This document shows, one piece after another, positions 1 to 52,555 of a stretch of 64,000 nucleotides of DNA (positions are counted from its first letter, which is position 1; the number at the start of each line of letters is the position of its first letter). The stretch comes from Acidimicrobiales bacterium (GTDB taxonomy: Bacteria; Actinomycetota; Acidimicrobiia; Acidimicrobiales; SZUA-35). The position numbers and the translations under genes were made by a program. A model generated the notes under the pieces. That model searched no databases and had not been told where the DNA came from. It saw nothing but the letters and a program-made list of their open reading frames with translations. Location of the stretch: NCBI GenBank assembly GCA_965216685.1, contig OZ244195.1, positions 87,780-151,779 of the forward strand, in the 5' to 3' direction.

Positions 1-753
1 CGCAACTACCAGCTGGTGGCCGACTACCTGGCCGAAGAGGTCGGGGTCGATGTGCGCTTCGAACCGGTGACCGAGTACGAGGCGGCGGTGACGGCGTTCC
101 GGGTCGGCGATCTCGATCTGGTGTGGTTCGGTGGTCTCACCGGTGTCCAGGCCCGGCTTCAGGTCGACGGAGCCGATGCCATCGTCCAACGGGACATCGA
201 CGAAACCTTCACCTCGGTGTTCGTGGCCGGGACCGACACCGACATCGAGCCGTTCGACGACGTGTCCGGTTTGAGCACCGTGGCCGGCCACACCCTCACC
301 TTCGGCTCCGAATCCAGCACCTCGGGTCGCCTGATGCCGCAGTCATTCATGAACGAGGCCGGGGTCGGTCTCGACGATCTGGACGGCGAACCGGGATTCA
401 GCGGCTCGCACGACGCCACCATCGAGTTGGTTGAGGCCGGCACCTTCGAGGTCGGGGCCCTCAACTCCCAGGTGTGGGATGCTCGGGTCGAGGCCGGCGA
501 GGTCGACCTCGACAAGGTCCAGGTCGTGTTCGAGACCCCGACCTACTACGACTATCACTGGGTGGTGCGACCGGAGTTGGGCGACGACTTGACCGCCCAG
601 GTGGTCGATGCCTTCACCTCCCTCGACCCGGACGACCCCGACGAAGCCGCCATCCTGGAGTTCTTCGGCGCCGGTTCGTTCATCGAGACCAGCAATGAGA
701 ACTACGCCAGCATCGAACAGGTCGGACGCGACATCGGAAGCATCGAGGGGTAA
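1..753 (+). CDS. phnD: Phosphonate/phosphite ABC transporter substrate-binding protein (PhnD family), 5' end cut by the window edge
   Basis: The reading frame is open from nt 1 (track ORF 16..753). It has PhnD-like motifs (DLVWFGGLTGVQA, GSESSTSGRLMP) and is followed by phnC and phnE. Confidence 0.8.
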   Translation, partial: RNYQLVADYLAEEVGVDVRFEPVTEYEAAVTAFRVGDLDLVWFGGLTGVQARLQVDGADAIVQRDIDETFTSVFVAGTDTDIEPFDDVSGLSTVAGHTLTFGSESSTSGRLMPQSFMNEAGVGLDDLDGEPGFSGSHDATIELVEAGTFEVGALNSQVWDARVEAGEVDLDKVQVVFETPTYYDYHWVVRPELGDDLTAQVVDAFTSLDPDDPDEAAILEFFGAGSFIETSNENYASIEQVGRDIGSIEG

Positions 754-783
754 CGGAGAGTCCAGGAGGGTCGACGAACAGCC

Positions 784-1593
784 ATGGATGGGTCCGTGCC
801 GGCCTCTGAAGCGGAGTCGACGGCCAGTGTCGACCTCGCCGCGGTCACCGTCCGCTACCCGGGGGCCGACCAGTTGGCGGTGGCCGACCTGTCGCTGCAG
901 GTTCGGCCCGGCGAACTGGTGGCTCTGGTCGGCCCGTCGGGCGCCGGCAAATCAACGGTGCTGTCACTGGCCGCCGGACTCACCCTTCCCACCTCGGGCC
1001 GGGTCGAGGTGCTGGGCGTCGACAGCGCCATCCTCGGACGGCGGGCCCATCGCCCGGCCCGCCGCCGGGTCGGCATCATCAGCCAGGACTTCGGCCTGGT
1101 AGGACCGTTGCGGGTGGCCAGCAACGTGGCCGCCGGGCGGGTCGGGCGCTGGTCGTGGCCCCGGGCCGCCCGCTCCCTGATCCGACCGGGTCCAGTGGAC
1201 GAGATCGTGGTCGCCCTGGACACGGTCGGCATCGCCGAGAAGCTGTGGGACCGAGCCGATCAACTCTCGGGAGGACAGCAGCAGCGTACGGCCATAGCCC
1301 GGGCACTGTTCCAGCAACCCGACCTGCTCCTGGCCGACGAACCGGTGAGTGCGCTCGACCCGTCCCGCTCCGATGCGGTCATGGCCGCGCTGGCCGCCAT
1401 GATCACAGCCGACGACGACCGGGCCATGATCGCCAGCATGCACAACGCCCCACTGGCCCTACGGCACTGCCACCGCATCGTTGCCCTCCGGGAAGGTCGA
1501 CTGCACTTCGATCTCCCAGCCGATCAGGTCGACGAGGATCGGCTGAGCGAGCTGTACCAGATCGGGCAGTCCGGCCGCCATCAGCCGGTGTGA
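784..1593 (+). CDS. phnC: Phosphonate ABC transporter ATP-binding protein
   Basis: 269-aa ORF with Walker A GPSGAGKST, ABC signature LSGGQQQR and Walker B LLLADEP. It sits between phnD and phnE. Confidence 0.85.
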   Translation: MDGSVPASEAESTASVDLAAVTVRYPGADQLAVADLSLQVRPGELVALVGPSGAGKSTVLSLAAGLTLPTSGRVEVLGVDSAILGRRAHRPARRRVGIISQDFGLVGPLRVASNVAAGRVGRWSWPRAARSLIRPGPVDEIVVALDTVGIAEKLWDRADQLSGGQQQRTAIARALFQQPDLLLADEPVSALDPSRSDAVMAALAAMITADDDRAMIASMHNAPLALRHCHRIVALREGRLHFDLPADQVDEDRLSELYQIGQSGRHQPV

Positions 1594-3263
1594 CCGCCAC
1601 CCTCGACCACCGCCCGATTGCCGTCGAGGCCAAGCCGGCGGACCGGATCCGGCGAGCCTGGGCCCTGGCCGTGGGCGCCCTGGTGGCCTGGTCGATCGTC
1701 AAGGCCGGCGTCGATCCGGGCCAACTGGTCAACGAACGGGGTTGGTCACAACTCGTTGCCTTCTTCTCGGCCATGCTCTCCCCCGATCTGAGCACCGCCA
1801 TGCTCGAACTCACCGTGCGAGAGTCGGCGGTGACGGTTGGCTACGCCCTGTTGGGCACGGCTTTGGCCGTGATCATCGGCGTGGCCTTCGGTCCACTCCT
1901 GACCGAACGGCTGTGGAGCCCACTGCACGGCCGGATGGGTCGGGGCCGTGTCGGCTGGGCTGTCGGTCGGGTCCTGCTGGTGGTTCCCCGGTCGATGCAC
2001 GAGGTGGTGTTCGGGCTCTTCCTGGTCAACATCTTGGGCCTCAACCCTCTGGTGGCGGTTCTGGCCATCGGTATTCCCTTCGGGGCGGTCACGGCCAAGG
2101 TCTTCGCCGAACTGCTCGACGAAGTTCCCCGTGACGCCGAACTGGCCATGCGGGCGGCGGGAGCGGGGCGGATCACCGCCTTGACCTTCGCCACCGTGCC
2201 CCAGGCCCTGACCGATCTGTTGTCCTACACCTTCTACCGCTTCGAGTGCAGCCTGCGCAGCGCCGCCGTGCTGGGCATCGTCGGAGCGGGCGGCCTGGGC
2301 TTCCAGCTCGCCTTGTCGTTCCAGTCGTTGCGCTACAACGAGATGTGGACGCTGCTGTGGGCCCTGATCCTGCTGTCGGGACTGGCCGATCGCTGGTCGT
2401 CGGCTGTTCGGCGGCGGCGCAACGCCATCGCCGCCGAGACCCACGTTCGTACAACGGCAGCCGACGGTCCGGATGGCGATCGACTGCTCCGGCTCAGCGC
2501 CGTCGCCCTGGCCGCTTCGTTGCCCATCGCCTACTGGCGGCTGGGGATCGACATCGGTTCGCTGTGGGACGACCGGGCCCGGCTGCTGATTGGAGAGCTT
2601 GTCTCCGATGGCTGGCCCCCGGAGATCGGCACCGGCGGTCTACGGGGCCTGATCGACGATTCGCTCGACACCATCGCCCTGGCCGTGCTGTCGCTGGCCA
2701 TGGCCTTTGTCGTCGCCTCTCCCCTGGCCTTCCTGGCCCAGCGGCCCAGCGGTCAGGCAAGCGGTCCGGGGGCCGTGGTTCGAAGCGTGGTCTCGGCCGC
2801 CATCCGGTTCGTTCTCCTCATCGGACGTTCCGTGCCGCCACCGGTGTGGGCCTTCGTGGTGGTGTTCGTGCTCTTCCCCGGGCTGTGGCCCGGGGCGGTG
2901 GCCCTGGCCGTCTACAACACCGGTGTTCTCGGTCGTCTCCAGGGTGAGGTGGTGGAGAACATGGACCAGCGGCCCGCTGACCAGCTGGCCGCCAGCGGAG
3001 CGACCGCACCGGTAGCCTGGACGGTGGCCACCGTTCCGGCCGTGGCCGGCCGGTTCGTGGCCCTCGGGTTGTACCGCTGGGAGGTGGCCATCCGGGAGAC
3101 GGTGATCGTGGGCGTGGTGGGGGCGGCCGGCCTTGGGCGCCGGCTTGATCAACAAACCGCAGCCTTCAACTACGACGGGATCGTGGCCACCGTGGTTGCC
3201 CTGTTCATGGTGACCGTGGCCGTCGACCTGGCCTCGGCCTCCATCCGCCGCTCCATCCGGTAG
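1590..3263 (+). CDS. phnE: Phosphonate ABC transporter permease, fused two-domain PhnE
   Basis: Track ORF 1155..3263 is trimmed to GTG 1590, which overlaps the phnC stop (GTGA). The protein is polytopic with two repeated permease halves. The 1155-1589 extension overlaps phnC and is Arg/Pro-rich junk. Confidence 0.8.
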   Translation: MTATLDHRPIAVEAKPADRIRRAWALAVGALVAWSIVKAGVDPGQLVNERGWSQLVAFFSAMLSPDLSTAMLELTVRESAVTVGYALLGTALAVIIGVAFGPLLTERLWSPLHGRMGRGRVGWAVGRVLLVVPRSMHEVVFGLFLVNILGLNPLVAVLAIGIPFGAVTAKVFAELLDEVPRDAELAMRAAGAGRITALTFATVPQALTDLLSYTFYRFECSLRSAAVLGIVGAGGLGFQLALSFQSLRYNEMWTLLWALILLSGLADRWSSAVRRRRNAIAAETHVRTTAADGPDGDRLLRLSAVALAASLPIAYWRLGIDIGSLWDDRARLLIGELVSDGWPPEIGTGGLRGLIDDSLDTIALAVLSLAMAFVVASPLAFLAQRPSGQASGPGAVVRSVVSAAIRFVLLIGRSVPPPVWAFVVVFVLFPGLWPGAVALAVYNTGVLGRLQGEVVENMDQRPADQLAASGATAPVAWTVATVPAVAGRFVALGLYRWEVAIRETVIVGVVGAAGLGRRLDQQTAAFNYDGIVATVVALFMVTVAVDLASASIRRSIR

Positions 3264-3271
3264 AGGGTTGA

Positions 3272-4327
3272 TCAGCGACCTTCGACCACGGCGACAAGCG
3301 CCGCCTGCTCGTTCGCCGGTTCGGTGATGGGAACCAGCTGGTTGGTCCGCCGCTGCAACTCGTCCAGCAGTGCCGGATCGGATTCGAGGGCCGTCAACAG
3401 CCGGGCCATGGCCTCGTCATCGCCCACCGGAACGAGGCCGGGGTGGTCGTCGCCCAACAGCCCGGTGTTGCCCTCGATACGGGTTCCGACGACCGGCAGG
3501 CCTATGGCGATGGCTTCGGTCACCACGTTGGCCCCACCCTCGGCCCGGGACGTGCAGGCCAGCAGGTGGCCTGATGCCAGCAGCTCCAGCGCGCTGATCC
3601 GGTGGAGTTCGCCGTGCCATCGGTACCGGGGGTTGACCCGCTGCTCCCCGTCGGCCGCCTCGGCCCAGGCCGGGTCGAGGGCTCGACCGGCGTGATGCAC
3701 GCTGACCCTGCTGTCCGGACTCATCCGGCGAGCGGCCCGGGCGGTCAGCAACGGGTCCTTGATGTCCCGCAGGTGGGCCAGCACCACCACCCGCAGCTCA
3801 CCGGCAGCCGGGCGCCGGGTGGGGCGGGGCCGGGCCACCGACTGGTGGATGACCGTCGTCTTGGCCCCCCAGCCCGGTCGAAACCGCTCCACCCGGGCCA
3901 GGGCCGCCCGCTGGAGCACGATCAGCCCGTCGGCCGCCTCGGTTGACGCCATGGCCGCGGCGTTGCCGGGCATGTCCTGGTAGAGGTCGGTGCCGCTCAA
4001 GCCGACGATCAGGCGGCGGTCGGGGTGGTGGCGACGCCACCAGCCCACCACCGGAGCCGAGCGACGGGCGTGGAGAGCAACCAGAACATCGGCTGACCGC
4101 AACCGGGTGGCGTGGTAGTCGCCGATCTCGTCGGACTGTTCGTCGATGGCGAGGAGGGCCACCTCGTGGTCGGCCGCCTGCAGCAGAGCGGCCCATCGGT
4201 TGGCGGTGACGTCGTTGCCCGAACCGGCTGTGGGCCGGATGGGGGCGGCGATGACCACCGAGCGGTTCCGGTTCACGGGTTGGATCGTGGGGTCACCGGG
4301 CGCAGGTTCGGAATCCGGCGTAGACAT
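3272..4327 (-). CDS. senB: GT-B fold glycosyltransferase, candidate selenosugar synthase SenB
   Basis: Track ORF 3272..4423 is trimmed to ATG 4327; GTG 4276 is an alternative start. It has a GT-B-like N-terminus (VVIAAPIRPTAGSGNDVTANRW) and a C-terminal EGGANVVTEAIAIGLPVV motif. It lies immediately downstream of, and overlaps, the EgtB-like gene, and selD is adjacent. Confidence 0.65.
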   Translation of the reverse strand: MSTPDSEPAPGDPTIQPVNRNRSVVIAAPIRPTAGSGNDVTANRWAALLQAADHEVALLAIDEQSDEIGDYHATRLRSADVLVALHARRSAPVVGWWRRHHPDRRLIVGLSGTDLYQDMPGNAAAMASTEAADGLIVLQRAALARVERFRPGWGAKTTVIHQSVARPRPTRRPAAGELRVVVLAHLRDIKDPLLTARAARRMSPDSRVSVHHAGRALDPAWAEAADGEQRVNPRYRWHGELHRISALELLASGHLLACTSRAEGGANVVTEAIAIGLPVVGTRIEGNTGLLGDDHPGLVPVGDDEAMARLLTALESDPALLDELQRRTNQLVPITEPANEQAALVAVVEGR

Positions 4328-5591
4328 CGCGCCGGTCGGGGGTGAAGTAGTTCCGGTAGGTCGAGCGGACGTAGCGGTGGCGGGTGGCCCACGAGCCACC
4401 CCGCAGGACCTTGCGGGTACCAAACCACGGTTCGGAGTTGTCGCGGTAGGCGTCCGGTTCGAAGTGGGGGTACGGGCCGAAGGTGGAACTGGTCCACTCC
4501 CACACGTTGCCGATCAGCTGACGGTGGCCCCAGGGGCCGTCACCGGCCCCGAAGGCCCCGACCGGAACGGTGTGACCGGTTCGAGCGTCGAGCGCCGCCT
4601 CCGACGGCTGGGGGTCGCGGCCGCCCCAGGGGAACCACGGCAGGCGTTCACCGGTCGGGGTGGTGGTGGCCGCCGCCTCCCATTCAGCCTCGGTGGGCAG
4701 CCGGCGACCGGCCCAAATGCAGTAGGCCTCGGCTTCCCACCAGTTGACGTGGATCATGGGATGGTCGTCGGTGTTGCTGATCGGCCCCCAGACCGAGCCG
4801 ATTCGCCGCTCCCAACCGTCGGCCCCTCGACGCCAGTAGGCTGGTTGGCCGGATTCGGATTCCCGTCGCCAGGCCAGACCGTCCGGTGACCACAGTCGGT
4901 CGTCGTCGTAGCCGCCGTCGTCGACGAACTCGGCGAATTGGCCGATGGTGACCGGGGTGACGGCCATGTCGAAGCGGTCGATCTCGACCGGGTGGGCCCA
5001 CTTCTCGTTGTCCATCACGAACGGTTGGCGACGGGACGCCCCCAACACCACCCGACCTCCGCCGACCGAGCGGTCGCCCGATATCGGTTCACCCATCACC
5101 GGCGCAGAGGCCGAACGGCCCGGGAGGCGGCCCCAGTCGAGAGTCTGCCGGGTGTAGGTCAGGGCCTCGCAGTGGGCGTCGTGGTGCATGACGGCGTAGG
5201 CCACGTAGTAGGCGGTGGAGTCGAGACCTCTATCATCGCCCAGCACCTCGACCAGACCGTCGGCCACCCGGCGCACGTAGTCGATGGTGGTGGCCGAATC
5301 GGGGTAGTCGATCTGCCAGCGGGTCTTGTGGGCCACCAGAGCCGAGTCGTACCGTTCGTCGACGTGGTCCAGCAGCGGTTGGCGGCCGTGCAACTGGCGG
5401 AGCACGAACCACTCGGCGAACCAGCCGACGTGGGCCAGCTCCCAGATCGGCGGGTTCACGATGGGAAGGTAGGGGCCCATCCAGCGGGGATCGTCGCGCT
5501 GGAAGTCGGCCACCGAACCGATCAGGTGATCTGTGGCGTCGCCCACCCAGTCGGCCAGATCATCGTGGTCAACCCAGGTGGACAATGACAT
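4293..5591 (-). CDS. senA: EgtB-like DinB + FGE-sulfatase domain C-S/C-Se bond-forming enzyme, candidate selenoneine synthase SenA
   Basis: 432-aa ORF starting at ATG 5591. The N-terminus is DinB-like (WELAHVGWFAEWF) and the C-terminus is an FGE-sulfatase domain (LRGGSWATRHRYVRSTYRNY). The context with selD and a glycosyltransferase favours SenA over EgtB. Confidence 0.7.
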   Translation of the reverse strand: MSLSTWVDHDDLADWVGDATDHLIGSVADFQRDDPRWMGPYLPIVNPPIWELAHVGWFAEWFVLRQLHGRQPLLDHVDERYDSALVAHKTRWQIDYPDSATTIDYVRRVADGLVEVLGDDRGLDSTAYYVAYAVMHHDAHCEALTYTRQTLDWGRLPGRSASAPVMGEPISGDRSVGGGRVVLGASRRQPFVMDNEKWAHPVEIDRFDMAVTPVTIGQFAEFVDDGGYDDDRLWSPDGLAWRRESESGQPAYWRRGADGWERRIGSVWGPISNTDDHPMIHVNWWEAEAYCIWAGRRLPTEAEWEAAATTTPTGERLPWFPWGGRDPQPSEAALDARTGHTVPVGAFGAGDGPWGHRQLIGNVWEWTSSTFGPYPHFEPDAYRDNSEPWFGTRKVLRGGSWATRHRYVRSTYRNYFTPDRRDVYAGFRTCAR

Positions 5592-5632
5592 GACAAAACC
5601 GTAGCAGTGGTCGTCTCGGTAGTCTGAAAGCT

Positions 5633-6673
5633 GTGACCAACGAACGGCCCAACCGCCTGACCCAATTCAGCCACGGCGCCGGTTGAGGCTGCAAGCTCGC
5701 TCCGGGCGAGCTGGCGCACGTGGTGCGCGATCTGCAGGCCGACACCCCTCCCGAGTTGCTGGTGGGAACCGCCACCGGCGATGACGCCGCGGTCTGGAAG
5801 CTGGACGACGACCGGGCCATCATCTCCACCGCCGACTTCATCACCCCGGTGGTCGACGACGCCCGCACCTGGGGCCGGGTGGCCGCCGCCAACAGCGTCT
5901 CCGACGTCTACGCCATGGGTGGTCGACCTCTGTTCGCCCTCAACCTGGTGGGCTGGAACACCGATGCCCTCCCCACCTCTTTGCTGGGCGAACTCCTGGC
6001 CGGCGGTCAAGACATCGCCCGGGCCGGGGGGTTCGCCATCGTCGGTGGCCACACCATCGATGACCCCGAGCCGAAGTACGGGATGTCGGTCACCGGTGAG
6101 GTTCACCCCGACCGGATCCTGACCAACGCCGGCCTGACCGCGGGCCAGGACCTGATCCTGACCAAGCCGTTGGGAGTGGGGGTCATCACCACGGCCATCA
6201 AGGCCGATACCGCTCCGGCCGAGGTGGCTGAGGCTGCCATTGCCTCGATGACGATGTTGAACGACGTGGCCTCCCGGGTGGCACTGACGGCCGGAGCCAC
6301 CGGTTGTACCGACGTGACCGGCTTCGGGTTGCTGGGTCACCTCGGTCGTATGGCCGTCGAGTCCGGGGTTCGGGTCACTGTTGAGTTCGAAGCCATTCCC
6401 ATGCTGCCCGGAGCCATTGATCTGGCCGCTCAGGGGATGATGCCCGGCGGCAGCCGACGCAACCTGGCCTGGGGGGGCGAACTGCTCGATCCCGGGTCCC
6501 ACGATGAACTCCACCAGTTGATGATCGCCGATGCCCAGACGTCGGGTGGGCTGGTGTTCGGCGTCGAGCCCGGCCAGACCGGGTCGGTGCTGTCCCAGCT
6601 GGCCGACAGCGGCCACCGGGCGGCCCACATCGGGTCGACGACGGCCGGCACCCCCGGCTTTCGTCTCACCTGA
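5633..6673 (+). CDS. selD: Selenide, water dikinase (selenophosphate synthetase SelD/SenC) with an in-frame UGA selenocysteine
   Basis: Track ORF 5720..6673 continues upstream in the same frame through TGA 5684-5686. From GTG 5633 it reads MTNERPNRLTQFSHGAG-U-GCKLAPGEL. This aligns with the E. coli SelD N-terminus (LTQYSHGAGCGCK), placing TGA at the catalytic Cys17 position. A GAAAG Shine-Dalgarno-like sequence sits 3 nt upstream of the GTG. The AIR-synthase-like body includes DDAAVW and GGHTIDD. Confidence 0.88.
5684..5686 (+). other. UGA selenocysteine recoding codon in selD
   Basis: ggt TGA ggc tgc aag lies in frame with both the upstream GTG 5633 and the downstream SelD body. Confidence 0.85.
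5687..5740 (+). promoter_or_regulatory. Candidate SECIS region (stem-loops directly 3' of the UGA)
   Basis: Hairpin 1 is AGCTCGC-TCCGG-GCGAGCT (5694-5712). Hairpin 2 is GCGCAC-GTG-GTGCGC (5714-5728). A possible closing helix pairs GGCTGCA (5687-5693) with TGCAGGCC (5733-5740) with one bulge. I did not compute a folding energy. Confidence 0.55.
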
Positions 6674-6991
6674 TCGGTCCTGGGGTGTCGGCCGTCCCGT
6701 CCGCCTTCCACCGGCCCGGCCAGGATGCGCTTTGGCGGCTCAGCGACCCCCCAGATGGGTCTGTGAACCGCCAAAGCGTCTTCTACCGGGTCGTCGAGCA
6801 GCCAAACTGTGGGGCAGGGATGTCACCCAACCACCATGGCGTCGCCCACCCGGGCAGGCACCATCCTACGGAGTCGTTCATCTCAGACCGGTCGACCACC
6901 ATTAGTAAAGGATGCGACTATTAGGCTATGGTGGTCGTCGGTCGAGAGTCGGCCGGTCGACAAGCGAGACAGCCCGCCGGAGGTAGCAGCC

Positions 6992-7435
6992 ATGCGACGA
7001 ATTCTGTACCGACTTGGAGTGGCCGTGGTCATCATGACCGTGCTGACGCTCCCCTCCCCCGTGTCGGCCGATGATGCCGGCCGCCCGCTGGCCGTCGATC
7101 TGTCGTCGGCCAACGAGGTGCCGCCGAGCGGCACGACAGGATCAGGCTCGGCTGATGTCACCCTCAACCAGGGTCAGGGCCGGGTTTGCATCGATCTGAC
7201 CGCCCAGGGCCTGGCTGGAACCGTACTGGCCGGCCACATCCATTCCGGGCCGGCCGGGGTCAACGGAGGCGTGGTGGTCAATCTCGGCGTGAACAGCGCC
7301 GACTTCCAGGCCTGCATCGACGGTGTCGACAAGGACCTGATCAAGGATCTTCGCCAGAATCCGCAGAACTACTACGTGAACATCCACACCTCGGCCGTTC
7401 CGTCAGGCGAGATCCGGGGCCAACTGTCGAAGTAG
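6992..7435 (+). CDS. Secreted CHRD domain-containing protein
   Basis: Track ORF 6809..7435 is trimmed to ATG 6992, which is preceded by GGAGG. It has a signal-like N-terminus (MRRILYRLGVAVVIMTVLTL). CHRD hallmarks are present (NEVPP, AGHIHSGPAGVNGGVV, YYVNIHT, GEIRGQL). Confidence 0.8.
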   Translation: MRRILYRLGVAVVIMTVLTLPSPVSADDAGRPLAVDLSSANEVPPSGTTGSGSADVTLNQGQGRVCIDLTAQGLAGTVLAGHIHSGPAGVNGGVVVNLGVNSADFQACIDGVDKDLIKDLRQNPQNYYVNIHTSAVPSGEIRGQLSK

Positions 7436-8822: not shown

Positions 8823-10784
8823 ATGCTCAAGCGTGCCGTGGCGACGATTGCCGCAGCAACCATATTCGCCACTCTGCTCATTGCCGCACCCACCGCTGCC
8901 GTCGATCCGCCAAAGGGGGGTCCTGCGGTGATTAAGGTCGGCGCCGCTTCGCGCTCGGTATTACCAACGGTCGACGGCAGCCACGACTACCTCGACGGCC
9001 TCCAACCCGACCCCGATGATCCGTTCTCGCCCGGACTCGTGGTTCCCCAGTGGGACCAGGGTCGAGTGGCCGTGGGTAACGGGGCGTCGAATGCCCGCTG
9101 GGTACATGACGACATGCGCGTCTCGGCGGTGGCGTTCGAGGAACAACAGAGCAGAGACATCACGGTCATCGTGGCGGCCAACCTCTACATGATCTTCCGT
9201 GGTGACGGCGACGAGATCCGGGCGGCTGTGGCCGATCGCCTACCGGCAGCCGTCGTTGACCGGCTCGACATCGCCATCCACGCCGACCACAACCATCACG
9301 GCCCCGATACTGCGTTCGACGTCAACCACGAGTGGTACGACCTCATGGTGCAGCAGGCCGCCGAAGCCGTCGTCGAGGCCATCGAGGAGATGCGGCCCGC
9401 TCGTCTCGAGGTGGCGGAGACGAATCACTGGTTCGGGCTGCGTGACTCCCGCGATGCCCAGGTGCTCGATCCCACACTGGGTGTGTTACGAGCGACCGCC
9501 ACCAATGGCCAAACCATCGCCACCCTCACGTTCTGGGCCAACCACCCCGAAGTCACGTTGTTCTGGAGCCCGCCCACCGAGGCGATCACCGCCGACTGTG
9601 AGGTACTCGGCCTGGAGGGCGAGAATTGTTCGGCTCGGGACGCCTATTTCACCGCCGACTTCCCGGGGTGGACGAACCGGATCATCGCCGACGAACTCGG
9701 CGGTGAGGCCCTGTTCATCAACGGTGCCGTCGGCGATCTCATTACTCCCCTCGGAGCCAATGTGTGGGAGGTCGACGCAGCGGCACCGCTCGGTGACGGG
9801 CTGACCGTTCCCGACGAGGCATCACCGCCGATCGGCGCCTCGAACTTCACCGAACGAAACTTCCGTCGAACGTACCTTGTCGGGCGCGAGCTGGCCCACG
9901 CCGCCCTCGACGCCCTCGAGTCCGCTGAGCCCATTCTCCGACCGGAGATCGAGTACGAGACAACCGACGTCTACACCCGCATGTCGAACATCGGCTTCCG
10001 GTTTCTCCTGGTCGTGGGGGACGAAACGGGCCGTACCGCGCTGGGCCACAACCCGTTCGAGCTGTACACCTGCCCGGCGACCGGAGACAAGAACGACACC
10101 ACCTGCTCGGCCGACGGATTCGCCTCACAACCTGACCCGTTGCTCGGCACGGTTCGGGTCGGCGACCACGTCAAGACCCATGTGGCGTCGATGAAGGTCG
10201 GCCCGGTCGGCATGATGTGGCTTCCGGCCGAGGTCGGTCCCGAGACCACAATCGGCCTGCCGGCCGGCTATGACGACGATCCGGGCCGCTGGCACCTCGA
10301 CGACCCGGAACTGCATGCCTTCGGCCAGGAATACGTGACATCCGGTTACGTCAAGAATTTGATGGACGACGAGTACCGTTGGGTTGTCGGTCTCGGCAAC
10401 GACGAGCTGGGCTACTCGGTGCCGCTGTCGGACTTCCGGGTGTACTGCGTCGCCGACGCCCTGGTCGGCCCAGGTACGTGTCAAGCCCTGTACGAAGCCG
10501 GGGTGATCGAGTACCCCGACGCTGTCGCCGGCAGTACCTGCAAGGCGGTGACGGAAGACCCGTCACTGCTGGCCGCCTACGGGCAATTCGCCGAAGCGGT
10601 CGCGGCGTCGTGTGCCTACGGGCAGGCGTTCGACGAGTCACTCGACCACTACGAGGAAACGAACTCGGTGGGTTGGGATCTCGAAGCCGACATCTTCGCC
10701 GGGGTGGTCGAACTCACCGGCAACGACGACCCGTCCCGCATCAACCACGACTTCGAGGGCTACTGGATGGGCTACACCCCCTGA
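8823..10784 (+). CDS. Secreted hypothetical protein, possibly a metal-dependent hydrolase (function unknown)
   Basis: Track ORF 8790..10784 is trimmed to ATG 8823, downstream of GGGGGAGG. It has a signal peptide (MLKRAVATIAAATIFATLLIAAPTAA) and a His-rich motif (IAIHADHNHHGPD). Confidence 0.6.
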   Translation: MLKRAVATIAAATIFATLLIAAPTAAVDPPKGGPAVIKVGAASRSVLPTVDGSHDYLDGLQPDPDDPFSPGLVVPQWDQGRVAVGNGASNARWVHDDMRVSAVAFEEQQSRDITVIVAANLYMIFRGDGDEIRAAVADRLPAAVVDRLDIAIHADHNHHGPDTAFDVNHEWYDLMVQQAAEAVVEAIEEMRPARLEVAETNHWFGLRDSRDAQVLDPTLGVLRATATNGQTIATLTFWANHPEVTLFWSPPTEAITADCEVLGLEGENCSARDAYFTADFPGWTNRIIADELGGEALFINGAVGDLITPLGANVWEVDAAAPLGDGLTVPDEASPPIGASNFTERNFRRTYLVGRELAHAALDALESAEPILRPEIEYETTDVYTRMSNIGFRFLLVVGDETGRTALGHNPFELYTCPATGDKNDTTCSADGFASQPDPLLGTVRVGDHVKTHVASMKVGPVGMMWLPAEVGPETTIGLPAGYDDDPGRWHLDDPELHAFGQEYVTSGYVKNLMDDEYRWVVGLGNDELGYSVPLSDFRVYCVADALVGPGTCQALYEAGVIEYPDAVAGSTCKAVTEDPSLLAAYGQFAEAVAASCAYGQAFDESLDHYEETNSVGWDLEADIFAGVVELTGNDDPSRINHDFEGYWMGYTP

Positions 10785-10898
10785 TCGACGTGATCGATAC
10801 CGGCGTGAACTTGGCACCAGGTGTTGGCATACGCAAGAGGACCGACCGATATTGGACGCACTGAAACCTCGCTCAGCTGCTAGGGTTTAAGCGGTTCT

Positions 10899-10970
10899 TG
10901 CGGACGTAGTTCAACGGCTAGAACCTCAGCCTTCCAAGCTGATGATGTGGGTTCGATTCCCATCGTCCGC
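10899..10970 (+). tRNA. tRNA-Gly (anticodon UCC)
   Basis: Hand-folded cloverleaf: acceptor GCGGACG/CGTCCGC, D arm GTTC..GAAC, anticodon arm TCAGC-CTTCCAA-GCTGA, T arm GTGGG-TTCGATT-CCCAT. CCA is not encoded. Confidence 0.85.
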
Positions 10971-11280
10971 TCAATTTTGTCCGATCGACACCAGCCGTCT
11001 CGCCGGCGTGAGCCCGGATAGATCGACGAATCATGCGAAGTCGGCCACCCGAGCCTACGTTCTCGTCGACGCAGGTGGTGCCCTGTCGGTAGCAGGCCGT
11101 TGCCCGAGCCCGGTGCCATCGCCGCGGATCGCTACCCGGAGTTCGCGATCCTCCTCGCTGGCTTCGACCGCCACCCACCTGGAGGGTCCTTCGGCCCTGT
11201 TGGTTGGTCGCCGTCGGATCCACAATGGCACCATCAGCGCCCTCGGAGGGCGTGAAGAACACCACGAAAGCGAGCCGGCA

Positions 11281-12102
11281 ATGACCTTCACCCGGACGCA
11301 CCCAGACGCCGACGCAGAAGCGCCGCACCTCAAGCCGCTGCCGTTCCTGCCAGCACTCGCAGTCTTCCTGGCGATCGGCTTCTGGAATCGCGTGTGCATT
11401 TACCACATGACGCCATACCTCGAAGACCGCGGAATGCACCAGTTCAGTGCGTATCTGGCCGGCTTCATACTCGGACTTGCCCCACTTCTACCCGTCGCCC
11501 TCGTGATGCTCAGACAAGAAGGCAACGACATGGCGAGGGTCCGGCTATCAAACCGTCTCGGACTTCGGGGCTTCGGGTGGCGCATGTTCGTCCTGATGCT
11601 GTTCCTCACGTTCGTGGCGTTCGCCACAACGCTGCTGACCAGCCCGACTCAGTCCTGGATCACGGATCTGTCATCGTGGTTCCAGCCGGGCGACGTCTTC
11701 CACCCACTCCAGGATCCGACCACCTCGTTTGACTCCCTCATCGAGCCGTCGGTGGCCTGGATGGGTGCCGACGCAGCTGGCAGCTGGACCTGGGGGCTCG
11801 CAATCGTGGCGATGTTCCTCCTCAACATCGTGGGCGAGGAAGTGTTGTGGCGTGGTGTGATCTGGCCACGGCAACAACTCGTGCACGGTGAGCGCACCTG
11901 GCTCGTCCATGGCTTCATGTGGTACCTCTTCCACCTGCCGTTCTACCCGTGGTTTGTGATCTCCGGCCTGCCACAGGCCTTCATACTCTCGTATCTCTTC
12001 CAGAAGTCCAAGAACACCTGGCTGGTGCTCATCATGCACACCATCTTCAACTCGGTGTTCTACGTCATATTGCTGGGAATCGTTCTCGGATTCTTCAACT
12101 AG
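11281..12102 (+). CDS. CPBP family intramembrane glutamic endopeptidase (CAAX protease/Abi family)
   Basis: Track ORF 10942..12102 overlaps the tRNA, so it is trimmed to ATG 11281. The protein is polytopic with the motifs EEVLWRG, FHLP and MHTIFN. Confidence 0.7.
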   Translation: MTFTRTHPDADAEAPHLKPLPFLPALAVFLAIGFWNRVCIYHMTPYLEDRGMHQFSAYLAGFILGLAPLLPVALVMLRQEGNDMARVRLSNRLGLRGFGWRMFVLMLFLTFVAFATTLLTSPTQSWITDLSSWFQPGDVFHPLQDPTTSFDSLIEPSVAWMGADAAGSWTWGLAIVAMFLLNIVGEEVLWRGVIWPRQQLVHGERTWLVHGFMWYLFHLPFYPWFVISGLPQAFILSYLFQKSKNTWLVLIMHTIFNSVFYVILLGIVLGFFN

Positions 12103-12183
12103 CCACCCGTCAGCAGTGCTGCGCTCATCGATCGCACAGACATTGAGATTCATCAATGCGTGATGGAAGCAAAGGAGTAGGTA

Positions 12184-12972
12184 ATGAATACATACAGAAA
12201 AACTGCGATTGCGGTGGGCGTCTTGTTCATCGGCGCGATCGTGATGCTGTTTATCGGGGAGTCTATCTACAGAGATACTTTGGATAGCCCGGACTTTCTG
12301 GAAAACGCCCACCCGGACAGAGGTATGGTTGTCCTCGGAATACTGCTGGAGTATGCGGGTGCTCCGGCTGTGGTCGCCATTTCGCTGCTGCTGTTTCCCG
12401 TACTCAAGCAGCACAGTGAAGTCTTGGCCATGGGGTACGTTGGCTTCAGACTCATGGAGATGTCCATCTTGAGTGTTGCCTATGTCAGCAGACTTTCACT
12501 GATCAGTTTGAGCGAGGACTACTTGAGTACAGATGGTGCCGATGTTTCTTCCTATCAGGTACTGGGGAGATCAATAGAATCAGTAAATCAATGGGCTGGA
12601 ACCCAAGGAATGGTGTATATCATCATATTCGGTTTGGGGTCCTTGGTTTTGTATTCTGCCCTGTTCATGTCAGAACTGGTTCCTCGTTGGATATCTGCAT
12701 CGGGTCTGTTCGCTGCAGTGGTCTTGATGATCGGATCGATCCTCTGGGAGGTAGATGTTCTCGGAGATTTGTCTGGAGTCTGGTTGGAAGTGATCGTTGC
12801 TTCTCCTATTGCCATCGTTGAGGTAGCGCTCTCGATGTGGCTCATCATCAAGGGGTTCAATCAATCAGCATTGAATCCACCGTCATTCGACGGACATCAA
12901 CAACGTCCGATCGAGTGGCGGGACGAGATCGGTGACGGACGACCGGTTATTGGCAGCCGCAACGGAGGTTGA
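12184..12972 (+). CDS. DUF4386-like integral membrane protein
   Basis: 262-aa hydrophobic ORF in a visibly lower-GC stretch. It is a paralogue of 16076..16795, with a shared N-terminal KxAxxxGxLF pattern and a shared WL(I)(I/V)KGF C-terminal motif. Confidence 0.6.
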   Translation: MNTYRKTAIAVGVLFIGAIVMLFIGESIYRDTLDSPDFLENAHPDRGMVVLGILLEYAGAPAVVAISLLLFPVLKQHSEVLAMGYVGFRLMEMSILSVAYVSRLSLISLSEDYLSTDGADVSSYQVLGRSIESVNQWAGTQGMVYIIIFGLGSLVLYSALFMSELVPRWISASGLFAAVVLMIGSILWEVDVLGDLSGVWLEVIVASPIAIVEVALSMWLIIKGFNQSALNPPSFDGHQQRPIEWRDEIGDGRPVIGSRNGG

Positions 12973-13507
12973 TGCCGCGAGGCGATCCGGCGATGGTTTG
13001 CCCGCGGCGAACCAGCGCACCGGTACGTCCTGTTGCCGGCATGGTCGCTTACGGGTTCGCCGCCAGAGCCTCGTCGGCTGTGTCGCGCGGACGTGAGGGT
13101 CGCGCTCACAGCTGTCGCCAGCTTGGTTGTCGGCGTATTCACCCCAGCCACCGACCGCCTGACTTGAAGGCGATGCCTGATCGCCGTTGGTTCCAGTCGG
13201 TGGCCAACTCGGCGGCTGATCAGTTGGCCCACAATTCCGCCGAGGCCTTGATCACGAACGGCCCGGTGTTGAGGTAGGAGGAGGGAAGGAAGATGCTGGT
13301 GGCACCGGAGCAGAACGGCGCGCCGAATCGAGAGGCGCTCCTTTGACTTCAGAGCGCGGCCTCAAGTGGAACGGTCTGCTCGAGGAGAACGGTGGCGAAC
13401 GGGCCTTCGGGCGACTGTGGTGGTGGGATCGCCTCACCGACGTCATCGATGGCTTCATACCGGGGGGTATCGTCGACTGAGTGCTCCAGAAAAGGCGGCC
13501 TCGCAGT

Positions 13508-14095
13508 TCAGCTCCCTGCTGGGATCCTTCCCTGAGGTCGCCCTCGGATAATCCAGAGCAACAGCATCACGATCAGAAGAACGACGCCGATGGGCATCAA
13601 GCCGAACTTGATCCTGGTCAGCGCCGAGGCAGTGGTTGTCAGCCAGTCAATACGCGTGGGATACGACGAGTTGGCTATCACCAGGCTCAGGTTCTCGAGG
13701 ACATCGGCCACCCCGGAGATCAGGGGCGTCAGGCTGAGCCACTGCAAGGGGTGGTCCAGCGGCAGCAGACGCACCAGGAACCAGGCGCTGGTACTGGCAA
13801 ATGCCAGCGTGTAGCAGATCGGAAACAACATGTCCGGCATCAGATGGAGCATGAGGTAGGCGCGGCGGCCGTCAGTCCCGAGGGCCCCAAACAGGCGGTT
13901 GGCTTCGTCCGGTCCATAGGAGAAGCGCATGTCGAGAATGGGCAATCCTCCTGAGTGGTCCTCGATCGTTCGAGCGCTGAACGGCAGATCGGTGCCGTTC
14001 ATGATGAGCATGAGCACACCGGCGGCAGACAGCAGTCCCAGGATCACCGGCCAGCTCGCCCTGTTCTGTAGGCAGGCCACGAGTCTCCTGAGCAT
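13508..14095 (-). CDS. Hypothetical integral membrane protein
   Basis: Track ORF 13508..14251 is trimmed to ATG 14095 (MLRRLVACLQ...). It has several hydrophobic segments and lies 55 nt downstream of the oxidoreductase stop on the same strand. Confidence 0.5.
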   Translation of the reverse strand: MLRRLVACLQNRASWPVILGLLSAAGVLMLIMNGTDLPFSARTIEDHSGGLPILDMRFSYGPDEANRLFGALGTDGRRAYLMLHLMPDMLFPICYTLAFASTSAWFLVRLLPLDHPLQWLSLTPLISGVADVLENLSLVIANSSYPTRIDWLTTTASALTRIKFGLMPIGVVLLIVMLLLWIIRGRPQGRIPAGS

Positions 14096-14150
14096 CAGAG
14101 GCCGCCCAACAGGCCCGTTCCACCGACGACCAGGATCCGATTGACGACGG

Positions 14151-15689
14151 TCACGCCTGAGCCCAGGACCTCGCCACTTCGGTGAAGGCCGCCCTGCCCC
14201 CGCTGAGCGCCCCGGCGAACCCGCCGCCGGGGCTGCCCCAAGCGCCTGCAAGGTAGAGCCCTTTGACCGGCGTCTCGTTTGGGATTCTCGTCAAGTAGGC
14301 GTTGTCCATCGACTGTTCGAATCCGTAGATGGCGCCTTCCGTGTTGCCCGTGAATGCCCAATTGGTGAGAGGTGAGGCCGTCAACTTGGACTCGATCACG
14401 GACGAGAGGCCAGGAATGACCAGCTCCTCGGCCCGCCGGATCAGACTCTCGGCCCAGCGTTCCTTCTCCTCGTTGTAGGCCGCCCGGTCGCCGGCGACGT
14501 AGCCATCCTCGAACTGCCGCCAGGGTTCGAAGCCGCTCTGGCAGAAGAGCATCACGGTTGAGGTGCCAGGCTGCGAATATCCCTCGAAGGCATTGTCGTA
14601 GACGGTCACGGTGAACCCATTGTGTTCGACGTCCCCGCTCAGGCAGGCGGCGTATTCGGCCTCCGGCCCGGCGCCGGTGGTCACGTGCGTGCTGTATCCC
14701 TCGACCCTGCCCCCCAGTTCGGTGTCGAGACCGAGCCATACGATGAAGCTGGAGATGCTCGGCCGCTGGTTGGAGATGCGCTCGAGATACTCGGGCGGCA
14801 GGGTCCCGCCGGGAAGCATCTTGGTCAACGTTGTGATGGCACTGGCGTTGCTGACGACGGTGGTCGCCGGGAGAACGCTGCCGTCGGCCAGTCGGACACC
14901 AGTCACCGCTCGGTCGGTGATCAGTATCTCTTCCGCCCTCGATCCGTAGGAAATCTGCCCGCCGGAGGCCTCGACGACCTCGGCGAGCGCATCGCTGAGC
15001 GCCCGAGACCGGGGTTTGATGTAGAACGACCCGTTCTTGAGGTAGTTGCCGGCACTGCCGGCATACACGAACGCCGAGAGCTGCGACGGAGGGAGACCAA
15101 AGTAGCACCACAGACCACTCAGAGCCTCCGCCAGCGCCGGGTCGGTGACGTACTCGCCCAGAAGATCTGCGAGCGTCTTGTTCCGGATCTCCCACATCGT
15201 CGGGAACTCCACGGGAAACCGGCCGAGGTCGACGTGTCCCTTTGCGTGCAACCGACTGAATCGCTCGCCCTCGTCGGTGACGTCGACCATGTGGTGGACG
15301 AATCGGCGGATCCCGTCGGCTTCATCGGGGAAGCACTTGGCCAGCGTGTCAATGTAGGCGTCGGGATCTCGTTGAGGAACTGAGATGTCCAGATCAGGGG
15401 TCTTCAGGCGGTAAACCTCGGGGAGCTCGACCAATTCGATCTTGTCGAGCACACCGAGGTCGTCGAGGATCCAGGCCGCGATGTTGTTGTTGATGGACGT
15501 GCCGTGCAGGGATATCTCGAAATCGAACCGCCCGTCCTCTCGCACGAACGACCGGGCGTACCCACCCGGCTCGACGCCCTGTTCCACGATCGTGACAGGC
15601 ACACCGTGCTTGGCCAGAAACGCCGCGCAACTCAATCCTCCAAGACCCGCTCCAATGACCACAACCGGATGGTCCTGGTCGGTACTCAT
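14151..15689 (-). CDS. NAD(P)/FAD-dependent oxidoreductase, phytoene desaturase (CrtI)-like family
   Basis: 512-aa ORF with an N-terminal Rossmann motif (VVVIGAGLGGLSCAAFLAKHG...VEQ). Confidence 0.75.
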   Translation of the reverse strand: MSTDQDHPVVVIGAGLGGLSCAAFLAKHGVPVTIVEQGVEPGGYARSFVREDGRFDFEISLHGTSINNNIAAWILDDLGVLDKIELVELPEVYRLKTPDLDISVPQRDPDAYIDTLAKCFPDEADGIRRFVHHMVDVTDEGERFSRLHAKGHVDLGRFPVEFPTMWEIRNKTLADLLGEYVTDPALAEALSGLWCYFGLPPSQLSAFVYAGSAGNYLKNGSFYIKPRSRALSDALAEVVEASGGQISYGSRAEEILITDRAVTGVRLADGSVLPATTVVSNASAITTLTKMLPGGTLPPEYLERISNQRPSISSFIVWLGLDTELGGRVEGYSTHVTTGAGPEAEYAACLSGDVEHNGFTVTVYDNAFEGYSQPGTSTVMLFCQSGFEPWRQFEDGYVAGDRAAYNEEKERWAESLIRRAEELVIPGLSSVIESKLTASPLTNWAFTGNTEGAIYGFEQSMDNAYLTRIPNETPVKGLYLAGAWGSPGGGFAGALSGGRAAFTEVARSWAQA

Positions 15690-16075
15690 GACGCCACGCT
15701 CCTCAAATTGCCTCGCCGATCAGGTCGGCAACGACCCTCGATGGGCCGCTCATCAAGTATCCAACGCAGGGGGCTTGAGGAGGTAGGGGCCAAGGTCACG
15801 CCTCGGTGAGCACATTGTCAGTCATTGGATCCTCGAAGTTCTGCGCGGTCTCCTGGGGGAGCCGGCCGGCCTGTCGCGGCGGCGTCAAGTCCCTCGTCAC
15901 CGCCGGGGCATTCGTCGCCCGGCGACGAGGCATTGCGTAGTCGCCTGAGCTTTCGCTGCTTCACCTTCGACCTGGCCGGGCAGTCTGGGAAAGCCCGTGT
16001 GGTGACCTTGGCCTCTGTCTGCATAGACGCCTTTGTGGGACGATGAGAGCCTCGGTTGAGGCACGGAGGTCTGCC

Positions 16076-16795
16076 ATGAGGTACTTCCAGAAACCAGCGC
16101 AGCAGATCGGCTGGTTGTTCGTGGCGGCGACCGTTGCCGGTGTCCTGAGTGTCCTCGTGATGAGCCCGACTCTCGGCGACGACGATCTGCTCGCCGCGGT
16201 ACAGGAGAATCAAAGCTCGTTGCTGGTCGGTGAGATGCTCATCTTCGTCATGTTGGCGGCGATGGTCGGAACCGCCGTTCTACTCTGGCCGATACTCAGA
16301 GCTCGCAGCGAGACGATCGCCCTCGGGTATGTGCTGGCCAGGACGCTCGAGGTGGTGACGATCGCCATCGGGTTGGTGGCTGGTCTGTTGTTGGTGCCAC
16401 TGGCGTGGAGCACTGCCGACGGGGCCCAGCCGGCCGGCGCGGACGTGTTGGCCGAAACGCTGAAGCACGCAAGTGACTGGACCGGCTACCTCGGAGCCCA
16501 GATGGTCTTCAGCCTTTCAGCGTTGGTGCTGAACTGGGCGTTTCTCCGATACAGGCTTCTCCCCCGCTGGCTGTCGATATGGGGCCTGGTCGGAGTGCCT
16601 CTGATGTTCTTGTCGGGTTTCCTGGTGATGTTCGAGTCGCTCAACTCCAGCGCGTCGACCCTGAATCTGCTGGTCGTGCCGCTTGCCGTTCAGGAGATGG
16701 CGATGGCCGTCTGGTTGATCGTCAAGGGGTTCAGCGGTGTCATCGAACCCGAGTCGGAGTCAGTCGGTGGCCGGCCACTGAGAGCCGACCGCTAA
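16076..16795 (+). CDS. DUF4386-like integral membrane protein (second copy)
   Basis: Track ORF 16043..16795 is trimmed to ATG 16076, downstream of GGAGG. It is similar to 12184..12972. Confidence 0.6.
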   Translation: MRYFQKPAQQIGWLFVAATVAGVLSVLVMSPTLGDDDLLAAVQENQSSLLVGEMLIFVMLAAMVGTAVLLWPILRARSETIALGYVLARTLEVVTIAIGLVAGLLLVPLAWSTADGAQPAGADVLAETLKHASDWTGYLGAQMVFSLSALVLNWAFLRYRLLPRWLSIWGLVGVPLMFLSGFLVMFESLNSSASTLNLLVVPLAVQEMAMAVWLIVKGFSGVIEPESESVGGRPLRADR

Positions 16796-23207: not shown

Positions 23208-23208
23208 G

Positions 23209-24840: not shown

Positions 24841-24874
24841 AGCGGTGCGGTGCGCTCCTTTCCCGGCCTGTCGT

Positions 24875-25936: not shown

Positions 25937-25969
25937 CGGGGAGCCAGTGTAACGAGTTGTCGACGTTTG

Positions 25970-25988
25970 TTAGGTTCACCTACCAACA
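25970..25988. promoter_or_regulatory. Candidate IdeR/DtxR operator (iron box)
   Basis: TTAGGTTCACCTACCAACA matches the consensus TTAGGTTAGGCTAACCTAA with a perfect left half-site and about 12/19 overall. It lies in the divergent region between the Fe ABC operon and ideR. Confidence 0.3.
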
Positions 25989-26063
25989 TATTACAGGTGA
26001 GACTTCTGTCATACATCAAGGACGCTCAGCACAGCCCATACAGCATCGGTTATAGTTAATGTC

Positions 26064-39627: not shown

Positions 39628-39733
39628 AGGATCAACCTTTCGAGGTGGTGGTTCGAACCATACATGGTTCAAGGCCCGCCCAGCGCCGCCAGTGATTCTA
39701 AGCCTGGTCTCGGGGTGAAGCAAGAAGCAGCGG

Positions 39734-43689: not shown

Positions 43690-43730
43690 GAGCTATCCAT
43701 TCAACCCCATCGCGGCCCTCCACTTCGGAG

Positions 43731-48098: not shown

Positions 48099-48216
48099 CG
48101 GGCGGCGTTTGACGATCGATAGACAAGAATGTACCGTTATTCGGTCATTGTTCGTTAGACGGCCTAACGGGGTAACAGGGGAAAGGCGGCCGCCAAACCA
48201 TCAGCGAACGTGGCAC

Positions 48217-48235
48217 CGGCCGGAAGTTCCGGCCG
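48217..48235. promoter_or_regulatory. Palindrome upstream of the TRAP operon (candidate operator or leader hairpin)
   Basis: CGGCCGGAA-G-TTCCGGCCG lies 46 nt upstream of GTG 48281. A possible promoter, TTGACG (48109-48114)-N17-TACCGT (48132-48137), lies further upstream. Confidence 0.25.
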
Positions 48236-48280
48236 ATACAACCGTCGGGAGCAAGAAGGACGGCGGGGAAGGGGAACAAC

Positions 48281-51490: not shown

Positions 51491-51516
51491 CCTCACGACC
51501 CTGGAACTGCAGGCTC

Positions 51517-52523: not shown

Positions 52524-52555
52524 CTTTGCAGAGCCCATCAAGCCCGGGAGCCCCC

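Follow-up and report, generated by a model that had tools for sequence, protein, structure and literature searches.

A predicted six-gene selenium-assimilation and selenoneine unit with a selenocysteine-type selD in an Acidimicrobiia-like actinobacterium

Among the closest described systems for making the selenium antioxidant selenoneine is the sen cluster of Variovorax paradoxus DSM 30034, which encodes SenA, SenB and SenC, with the pathway reconstituted in vitro and structures available for its enzymes (8k5i, 8fbx/8jjn). Surveys by Kayrouz and colleagues counted 827 sen clusters and 1,514 SenA sequences (10.1101/2022.04.13.486033; PMC11030361). Production of selenoneine was first shown in two organisms, Amycolatopsis palatopharyngis being one of them; a putative selenate transporter has already been noted near many sen clusters, and most of these clusters take hercynine from an unlinked egt locus (10.1101/2022.04.13.486033). 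Among bacterial selenoprotein families, SelD ranks second in how widely it occurs (PMC1794560); no discussion of selenocysteine (Sec)-type SelD within sen clusters was found in the literature searched. The present analysis concerns a stretch of 64,000 nucleotides from contig OZ244195.1 (assembly GCA_965216685.1), hereafter the window, with a G+C content of about 65-71%. Positions 1-6673 of this window very probably hold six genes that form a selenium-assimilation and selenoneine unit in an Acidimicrobiia-like actinobacterium, among them a Sec-encoding selD. The predicted features of the unit are as follows.

1-753, plus strand: 3' part of the gene for the substrate-binding protein of a PhnD-type ATP-binding cassette (ABC) importer, cut at the window start (NCBIfam TIGR04553)
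784-1593, plus strand: ABC importer ATPase (best NCBIfam match PhnC-type, 209 bits, the cut-off of 266 not being reached)
1590-3263, plus strand: fused double PhnE-type permease (NCBIfam TIGR01097, 316.5 bits over two stretches)
3272-4327, minus strand: senB, putative selenosugar synthase (GT-B Se-glycosyltransferase), 351 residues from ATG 4327 (TIGR04348)
4293-5591, minus strand: senA, putative non-heme-iron selenoxide (selenoneine) synthase with DinB and FGE-sulfatase domains, 432 residues (NF041186)
5592-5632, no strand: divergent spacer of 41 bp between the senA and selD start codons, read from the sequence
5633-6673, plus strand: selD/senC, putative selenophosphate synthetase of the AIR-synthase fold, 346 residues, predicted Sec at residue 18 (TIGR00476)
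5684-5686, plus strand: predicted UGA selenocysteine codon (an in-frame TGA) at the catalytic Cys/Sec position of SelD
5694-5728, plus strand: two hairpins directly 3' of the UGA, found by folding, the second of which fits the rules for a bacterial selenocysteine insertion sequence (SECIS)

Family assignments were made with the curated equivalog models of NCBIfam, each with its own cut-off. SenB matches TIGR04348 with 308.4 bits, a narrow pass of the cut-off of 300, over model positions 1-309 of 310 (E = 4.6e-92). SenA matches NF041186 with 442.2 bits (cut-off 420) over positions 5-382 of 382 (E = 2.1e-132), and SelD, with Cys modelled at the TGA, matches TIGR00476 with 376.1 bits (cut-off 125; E = 1.3e-112). 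An earlier sequence-only reading of this stretch had proposed a trio of SelD/SenC, SenA-type and SenB-type genes; the profile hidden Markov models bear it out, all three proteins scoring above the NCBIfam cut-offs, and active-site residues, the SenA tree and synteny in relatives support the same assignment. Neither does the iron enzyme fall inside canonical EgtB, nor does the glycosyltransferase belong to an unrelated family. In the PDB, SenB matches only SenB structures (8fbx, 8jjn, 8jjq and 8k5u, with E of 4e-43 or better). Mutagenesis-critical residues of V. paradoxus SenB include the catalytic Lys158, the sugar-selecting N20/T23/E231 and the EGGAHV motif (PMC10891094), and alignment to 8jjn shows conservation of K158, N20/T23/E231, E239, R155, H58, T85 and D86. 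The differences from the V. paradoxus protein (T83S, V157I and EGGAHV to EGGANV) are all conservative. Because every residue shown to be critical in V. paradoxus SenB is conserved, a SenB role is predicted for the window glycosyltransferase. No public record of exactly the window SenA protein was found; public homologues of it reach 84% identity, and those already named 'selenoneine synthase SenA', in Actinomycetota, Acidimicrobiales and Ilumatobacter records, reach 79%.

The active site of the window SenA agrees with this assignment. Its iron triad H54, H136 and H140 and its catalytic Y382 align with H51/H134/H138/Y377 of EgtB and with the equivalent residues of SenA and OvsA. At the thiol-binding positions Arg87/Asp416 of EgtB it carries His88 and Phe416, and replacement of this pair by His and Phe/Tyr is the SenA signature (10.1101/2022.04.13.486033). 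The hercynine-contact pair is Asn414-Tyr415, within 'TYRNYFTPDRR', whereas OvsA has Gln-Ala. Asn-Glu-His and His-Arg, typical of SenA/OvsA, are present, in contrast to Ser-Asp-His and Arg-Arg in EgtB-I. The composite motif of the window protein reads NEH-HR-HaH-Y-N-N-Y-F-R; the published scheme assigns a 17-position composite motif to each subfamily, that of SenA being xNEH--HRHxHYYN(F/Y)(F/Y)R (Kayrouz et al. 2024, PMC11030361). A neighbour-joining tree (Kimura distance, 100 bootstraps, 55 sequences including three reference structures) joins the window SenA and two proteins from metagenome-assembled genomes (MAGs) of Acidimicrobiia, from loci L001 and L016, in a clade with 100% bootstrap. 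It falls within the SenA/OvsA group, away from the EgtB-I clade (95% support), in line with the SenA type proposed by the sequence-only reading; support within the SenA group is weak, and the tree is used only for these three placements. By these features the cluster is predicted to be a real sen-type selenoneine cluster of a known kind, and none of it alters the known chemistry.

The window cluster shares with that of V. paradoxus the same three enzymes, the adjacency of senA and senB, the SenB catalytic residues and the lack of egtD in the cluster. Within SenA, the likeness extends to the His triad, the catalytic Tyr, the His/Phe substitutions of the selenosugar pocket and the Asn-aromatic hercynine pocket. 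The two SenA proteins differ in that identity is about 41%, the window SenA keeps a segment of about 40 residues absent from V. paradoxus, and motif position 13 is Asn in the window and Tyr366 in V. paradoxus. The window further differs in a putative selenate importer placed tail-to-tail with senB and in a selD that is divergent from senAB rather than overlapping; its selD has a Sec codon, whereas the two proteobacterial sen-linked selD genes examined (L023, L027) encode Cys. With A. palatopharyngis (locus L082) the window shares the SenA composite motif, including Asn-13 and Asn-Tyr-Phe, and the position of senB directly after senA. In that organism, unlike the window, SelD has Cys instead of Sec, selD is split from senAB by genes for 1-deoxy-D-xylulose 5-phosphate (DXP) synthase and polyprenyl synthase, and the 10-kb flanks show no called PhnD-type transporter. 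The L082 cluster (8837-16406) is further flanked by a gene for a UbiA prenyltransferase and one that is squalene-hopene-cyclase-like, and a helix-turn-helix-rhodanese gene lies beside its selD.

Other SenA-like genes were seen among the loci compared. Two tandem genes in a Solibacteraceae MAG (L025, 3865-5040 and 5135-6313) have the motif EEH-YR-HMH-Y-Y-..-N-F-F-R, which departs from the published classes: Glu stands in place of Asn, and Tyr in place of the His found where EgtB has Arg87. No senB or selD turned up at this locus by tblastn, and the pair may represent an uncharacterised subfamily of these iron enzymes. The SenA-like proteins of two Latescibacterota MAGs (L013, L018) carry Gln at motif position 16 (Phe/Tyr in SenA, Asp416 in EgtB), and despite this Gln their genes are linked to senB and a PhnD-type transporter.

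The selD frame (5633-6673) contains an in-frame TGA at 5684-5686, with the translation ...SHGAG*GCKLAPGE.... This codon occupies the catalytic Cys/Sec position in the N-terminal Gly-rich loop of SelD (HGAG-U-GCK), with the catalytic Lys after it. Eight further sen-linked selD genes also have TGA at this codon (L001, L016, L081, L083, L010, L017, L013 and L003), four of them from Acidimicrobiia, L083 among these being from Ilumatobacter, two from Dehalococcoidia and one each from Latescibacterota and Thermoanaerobaculia; the codon is TGC in the proteobacterial L023 and L027 and in the Amycolatopsis locus L082. Across the 11 codons 5' of the TGA, the five Acidimicrobiia genes show 32 synonymous against 7 non-synonymous pairwise differences, all seven of the latter in the first codon of the stretch, and this synonymous excess argues that the stretch is translated in the same frame. 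At the TGA codon, the contigs that cover it in four public runs (two samples) show no differing letter, which argues against a sequencing error. Gene callers start the selD homologues 3' of the TGA, giving proteins of 316-317 residues, and such a start would delete the active-site loop. The window gene resembles known bacterial Sec-SelD (PMC1794560, PMC13188914) in having UGA in the N-terminal Gly-rich loop (GAG-U-GCK) and a stem-loop within the coding sequence, and differs in being embedded in a sen cluster with a selenium importer.

Two hairpins follow the UGA directly. The first, AGCUCGC-UCCGG-GCGAGCU, spans 5694-5712, and the second, GCGCAC-GUG-GUGCGC, spans 5714-5728, with a spacing of 33 nt after the UGA, a 6-bp stem, a GUG loop and a folding energy of -8.1 kcal/mol. 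The bacterial SECIS rules applied here (PMC13188914) call for an apical loop of 3-9 nt with G in its initial two positions, a stem of at least 4 bp, a spacing of 16-37 nt after the UGA and an energy of -7.5 kcal/mol or lower. In silico, a hairpin agreeing with the loop, stem and spacing rules occurs in all seven TGA-type genes tested, and six of the seven also reach the energy limit, L003 falling just short at -7.4 kcal/mol. The 51 nt from the UGA are more stable than synonymous-codon shuffles in 7/7 genes (p 0.02-0.15 each, combined 5e-4, the seven genes representing only about four independent lineages), with p = 0.60 and 0.75 in two Cys-type controls. The window SelD is thus predicted to be a selenoprotein, its UGA at 5684-5686 being read as selenocysteine with the aid of a SECIS-like hairpin.

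A SelD that is itself Sec-encoded implies that the organism must also have selA, selB and tRNA-Sec. ARAGORN found no tRNA-Sec in the window, a search of ten related loci likewise gave none, and neither selA nor selB was found in the window or in the related loci searched. The sequence-only reading had stated that selA, selB and a 2-selenouridine synthase are missing beside selD, and none occurs in the 64 kb by a Pfam scan of 43 open reading frames (ORFs) and an NCBIfam scan of the remaining cluster-flanking ORFs. It had drawn from this that the local selenophosphate serves small molecules rather than only Sec-tRNA or selenouridine; use in a small-molecule (sen) pathway stands, but the contrast with Sec-tRNA is weakened by a selD that is itself Sec-encoding. 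The window selD may serve both selenoprotein and selenoneine synthesis.

As a separate observation, the contigs of all four metagenome runs (X1-X4) break at 5666-5699, a segment of 34 nt that codes for TQFSHGAG-U-GCKL. The same segment also marks the end or start of several further contigs carrying 2-7 differences, which suggests that several co-occurring relatives share an ultra-conserved Sec-SelD N-terminus.

The partial binding protein (1-753) matches TIGR04553, named 'putative selenate ABC transporter substrate-binding protein' and classed as a 'hypothetical equivalog', with 312 bits (cut-off 250), as against 105 bits to the true PhnD model TIGR03431 (cut-off 261). Its homologues beside sen genes show 80-84% identity in L001 and L016 and 40-49% in L017, L018 and L013. 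The ATPase gene is syntenic in L001, L016, L017 and L018, and permease homologues of 570-573 residues occur in L081 and L083. The importer lies tail-to-tail with senB in L001, L016, L081 and the Dehalococcoidia chromosome L017, adjoins selD in L083, and adjoins senA-senB or selD in the Latescibacterota loci L018 and L013. The same six-gene block is present in L001, L016 and L083; L081 has the same order, but with the senB and binding-protein genes called short or split. With this linkage recurring in Acidimicrobiia, Dehalococcoidia and Latescibacterota, the importer genes are assigned to the predicted sen cluster. The sequence-only reading had described the cluster as abutting a phnDCE transporter tail-to-tail across 8 bp; the geometry holds, while the phosphonate identity and the status of a separate neighbour give way to the TIGR04553 match and the sen linkage.

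The positions of the three sen genes given by the sequence-only reading are correct on re-reading, and so are the co-orientation of senA and senB and the divergence of selD at 41 bp. The start of senB may be ATG 4327 or, equally plausibly, the in-frame GTG 4276, the latter giving the better match to the N-terminus of crystallised SenB. With the start at 4327, senA and senB overlap by 35 nt, as had been proposed; with the start at 4276 they are separated by a 16-nt gap. The start codon of selD is GTG, aligned with the ATG at which selD begins in relatives. Among the importer genes, the ATPase start ATG 784 is preceded by AGGAGG, the permease GTG start overlaps the ATPase stop (GTGA), and the permease stop (3263) and the senB stop (3272) are separated by the 8-bp gap. 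A consensus scan of the 41-bp spacer found no sigma-70-like site, and a sigma-70 promoter and terminator scan of 3100-7000 yielded nothing useful.

Directly downstream of selD, at 6809-7435 on the plus strand, lies a gene for a secreted CHRD-domain protein (PF07452, E = 4e-27). This gene and the next two ORFs were considered as cluster members and rejected, with no counterpart beside the sen genes in L001 or L016; the CHRD-domain gene is probably unrelated to the sen cluster.

No EgtD was found in the 64-kb window by Pfam (PF10017) and NCBIfam scans of about 50 ORFs, and six-frame tblastn of three verified EgtD proteins against the window gave a best E of 7.5, in agreement with the sequence-only reading, which had reported no EgtD-like histidine methyltransferase. 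Hercynine would therefore need to be supplied through an EgtD encoded outside this stretch. In seven other loci egtD adjoins SenA-type genes, and in the Dehalococcoidia chromosome L017 selD (with TGA), senA, senB, the importer and egtD stand together.

Several results weigh against interpreting the locus as a complete selenoneine unit. Its support consists of homology and conserved residues, at the sequence level throughout, and the selenate specificity of the importer family is only putative. The window and the examined flanks of four Acidimicrobiia relatives hold no egtD, so that the supply of hercynine is putative. No Rfam SECIS family matched: hits passing the gathering thresholds were all tRNAs, and relaxing E to 10 over 5600-5800 brought up noise alone. 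RNAalifold on the seven post-UGA regions gave no shared structure across phyla, because the hairpins lie in different registers across phyla. In the window SenA, motif position 13 is Asn385 (Tyr366 in V. paradoxus SenA, Met401 in OvsA), the other specified positions checked being matched, and it belongs to the three positions by which OvsA is switched between histidine and hercynine. The top solved structures for the window SenA are those of OvsA, 8ux5 with 263.9 bits and 8u41 with 259.1 bits, ahead of V. paradoxus SenA with 229.9 and EgtB with 209.7 bits. On position 13, OvsA M401, Q430 and A431 against SenA Y366, N395 and F396 decide between histidine and hercynine (PMC11030361). Asn occupies this position in 113 of 121 aligned sequences (the window SenA and its 120 closest database homologues), including cultured actinomycetes such as Haloechinothrix and Actinopolymorpha, and in the SenA of A. 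palatopharyngis (P0144, 50% identical, 'DAYHENSEQFF ... RNYF'). Since Asn-13 is common to these 113 sequences and to a selenoneine producer, the strict 17-position rule is too narrow to decide membership, and we read Asn-13 as the normal actinobacterial form of SenA, which the published strict rule would class as 'Other'.

The OvsA matches and the missing egtD would also suit an ovoselenol (ovs) cluster, in which the iron enzyme is an OvsA that selenylates C5 of free histidine. The ovs cluster of Halomonas utahensis (OvsA 8u41/8u42) likewise combines a senB and selD cassette with a SenA-related iron enzyme and has no egtD nearby. Such a cluster is nonetheless highly improbable here. The OvsA residues M401/Q430/A431 that form its pocket are Asn/Asn/Tyr in the window protein, and the OvsA-YNF mutant, which mimics SenA, outscores wild-type OvsA. 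No OvsM-like N-pi-methyltransferase occurs in the 64-kb window, the sole methyltransferase domain found being that of Hen1; the taxon is another one, and OvsA has been reported almost only from aquatic gammaproteobacteria. Identity over aligned columns is 41% to SenA, 37.5% to OvsA and 34% to EgtB. By alignment, V. paradoxus SenA lacks about 40 residues that are present in the window SenA, OvsA and EgtB, and its lower score is attributed to this deletion. The OvsA reading was rejected on the motif, the identities and the deletion in V. paradoxus SenA that lies behind the top PDB match. A selenosugar might instead be made while the iron enzyme uses another acceptor, such as histidine or partly methylated histidine, giving another selenoimidazole, or selenosugars might themselves be the end product. 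The lack of egtD in the 64 kb and in the examined flanks of the Acidimicrobiia relatives fits such a route, as does an Asn instead of Tyr at a position that belongs to the OvsA M401Y/Q430N/A431F specificity switch. It is unlikely all the same, for the trimethylammonium-contacting Asn414 and the aromatic Tyr415 are of the hercynine type, the selenoneine maker A. palatopharyngis has the same Asn-13 motif in its SenA, and an unlinked egt locus as the source of hercynine is usual for sen clusters (10.1101/2022.04.13.486033).

Two further explanations would take the locus out of selenoneine synthesis or silence it. An ordinary ergothioneine EgtB standing beside an unrelated glycosyltransferase, with selD used only for selenocysteine or selenouridine, would account for the common DinB and FGE fold, for a score of 289 bits to the EgtB model and for the name EgtB that some databases give to homologues. 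The window protein does resemble EgtB-I of Mycolicibacterium thermoresistibile (4x8b) in its fold, iron triad and catalytic Tyr, and in having hercynine as predicted acceptor. However, the two proteins are 34% identical, His/Phe stand in place of the thiol-binding Arg87/Asp416, and near the first iron ligand Asn-Glu takes the place of Ser-Asp. The window protein also lies in a clade separate from EgtB-I and stays, with 288.9 bits, under the cut-off of 360 of the EgtB model TIGR03440, while the glycosyltransferase scores above the cut-off of the SenB equivalog and has K158 conserved. An EgtB is accordingly extremely unlikely and refuted as far as sequence can tell. The TGA in selD could also be a true stop, leaving either a pseudogene or an N-truncated protein of 317 residues from GTG 5720, with the cluster inactive or dependent on another SelD. 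The gene callers' annotations of 316-317 residues and the lack of tRNA-Sec, selA and selB in the window agree with a stop, but the truncated protein would be without the Gly-rich loop bearing the catalytic Sec/Cys and Lys. Nine genes, drawn from four phyla, have their TGA precisely at the Sec/Cys residue, with TGC in the proteobacterial and Amycolatopsis genes. Purifying selection on the 11 upstream codons, the SECIS-type hairpins after the codon and the wide occurrence of SelD among bacterial selenoproteins (PMC1794560) likewise speak against a stop, which is exceedingly improbable.

For the selenoneine unit, a pathway of five steps is proposed. The PhnD-type ABC importer would take up a selenium oxyanion, as its family name and conserved sen linkage suggest, and cellular thiols would reduce the oxyanion to selenide, as known in general. 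From homology, SelD/SenC would then use ATP to form selenophosphate. SenB, by homology and conservation of its critical residues, would move the selenophosphate onto a UDP-sugar and hydrolyse the Se-P bond, giving a 1-seleno-sugar. SenA would couple this selenosugar to C2 of hercynine in a reaction dependent on O2 and Fe(II), the selenoxide collapsing to selenoneine; this last step is suggested by homology together with a selenosugar pocket of the SenA type and an Asn-aromatic pocket of the hercynine type. Since making SelD would itself call for selenocysteine, selenium supply should gate the pathway, full-length SelD and hence selenoneine being made only when the selA/selB/selC machinery and selenium are present.

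The remainder of the window holds several unrelated loci. At 10900-13500, just after a tRNA-Gly(TCC) gene (10900-10972), the G+C content drops from about 0.65 to 0.51-0.56; in and around this patch, DUF4386 paralogues (12184-12972 and 15941-16795) flank an amine-oxidase-type flavoprotein, and the patch may be an inserted island. At 21945-26741, an ABC importer (binding protein, fused permease and an ATPase with TOBE) stands beside a divergent DtxR/IdeR-type repressor with a FeoA domain, probably forming a metal-uptake locus. A secreted alpha-amylase/pullulanase-like protein of 1,202 residues with three X25 domains is encoded at 36421-40026 on the minus strand. A Pnkp/Hen1 RNA-repair pair lies at 39737-43692, also on the minus strand, where an ORF of about 900 residues combines kinase, phosphoesterase and PNKP-ligase domains (PF16542, E = 1e-169) and the neighbouring Hen1, of 469 residues, carries the methyltransferase domain PF12623 (E = 2e-106). 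At 48176-55688, a tripartite ATP-independent periplasmic (TRAP) transporter (DctP and a fused DctQM) precedes genes for a PaaX-type regulator, an enoyl-CoA hydratase and a PaaA/C-like protein.

With the predicted unit, the selenoneine pathway reaches an uncultured lineage of Acidimicrobiia type, and its make-up shows more clearly, with importer, selenophosphate synthetase, selenosugar synthase and selenoneine synthase side by side. Counts of SenA that follow the strict motif rule would be underestimates, since the Asn-13 actinobacterial form is left out of them. Because gene callers truncate selD at the Sec codon, SenC of these phyla can be overlooked or given a wrong size in automated surveys. 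From the link between Sec and SelD, selenoneine production may be under a selenium-dependent translational gate. As a tentative proposal, held with slightly less than even confidence, SelD of sen clusters in Acidimicrobiia, Dehalococcoidia, Latescibacterota and Thermoanaerobaculia would be a selenoprotein with its own SECIS, hard-wiring the pathway to Sec decoding as a translational switch that is on only with selenium, and the feeding of selenoneine synthesis by SelD could be a main reason why these mostly aerobic lineages keep Sec decoding.

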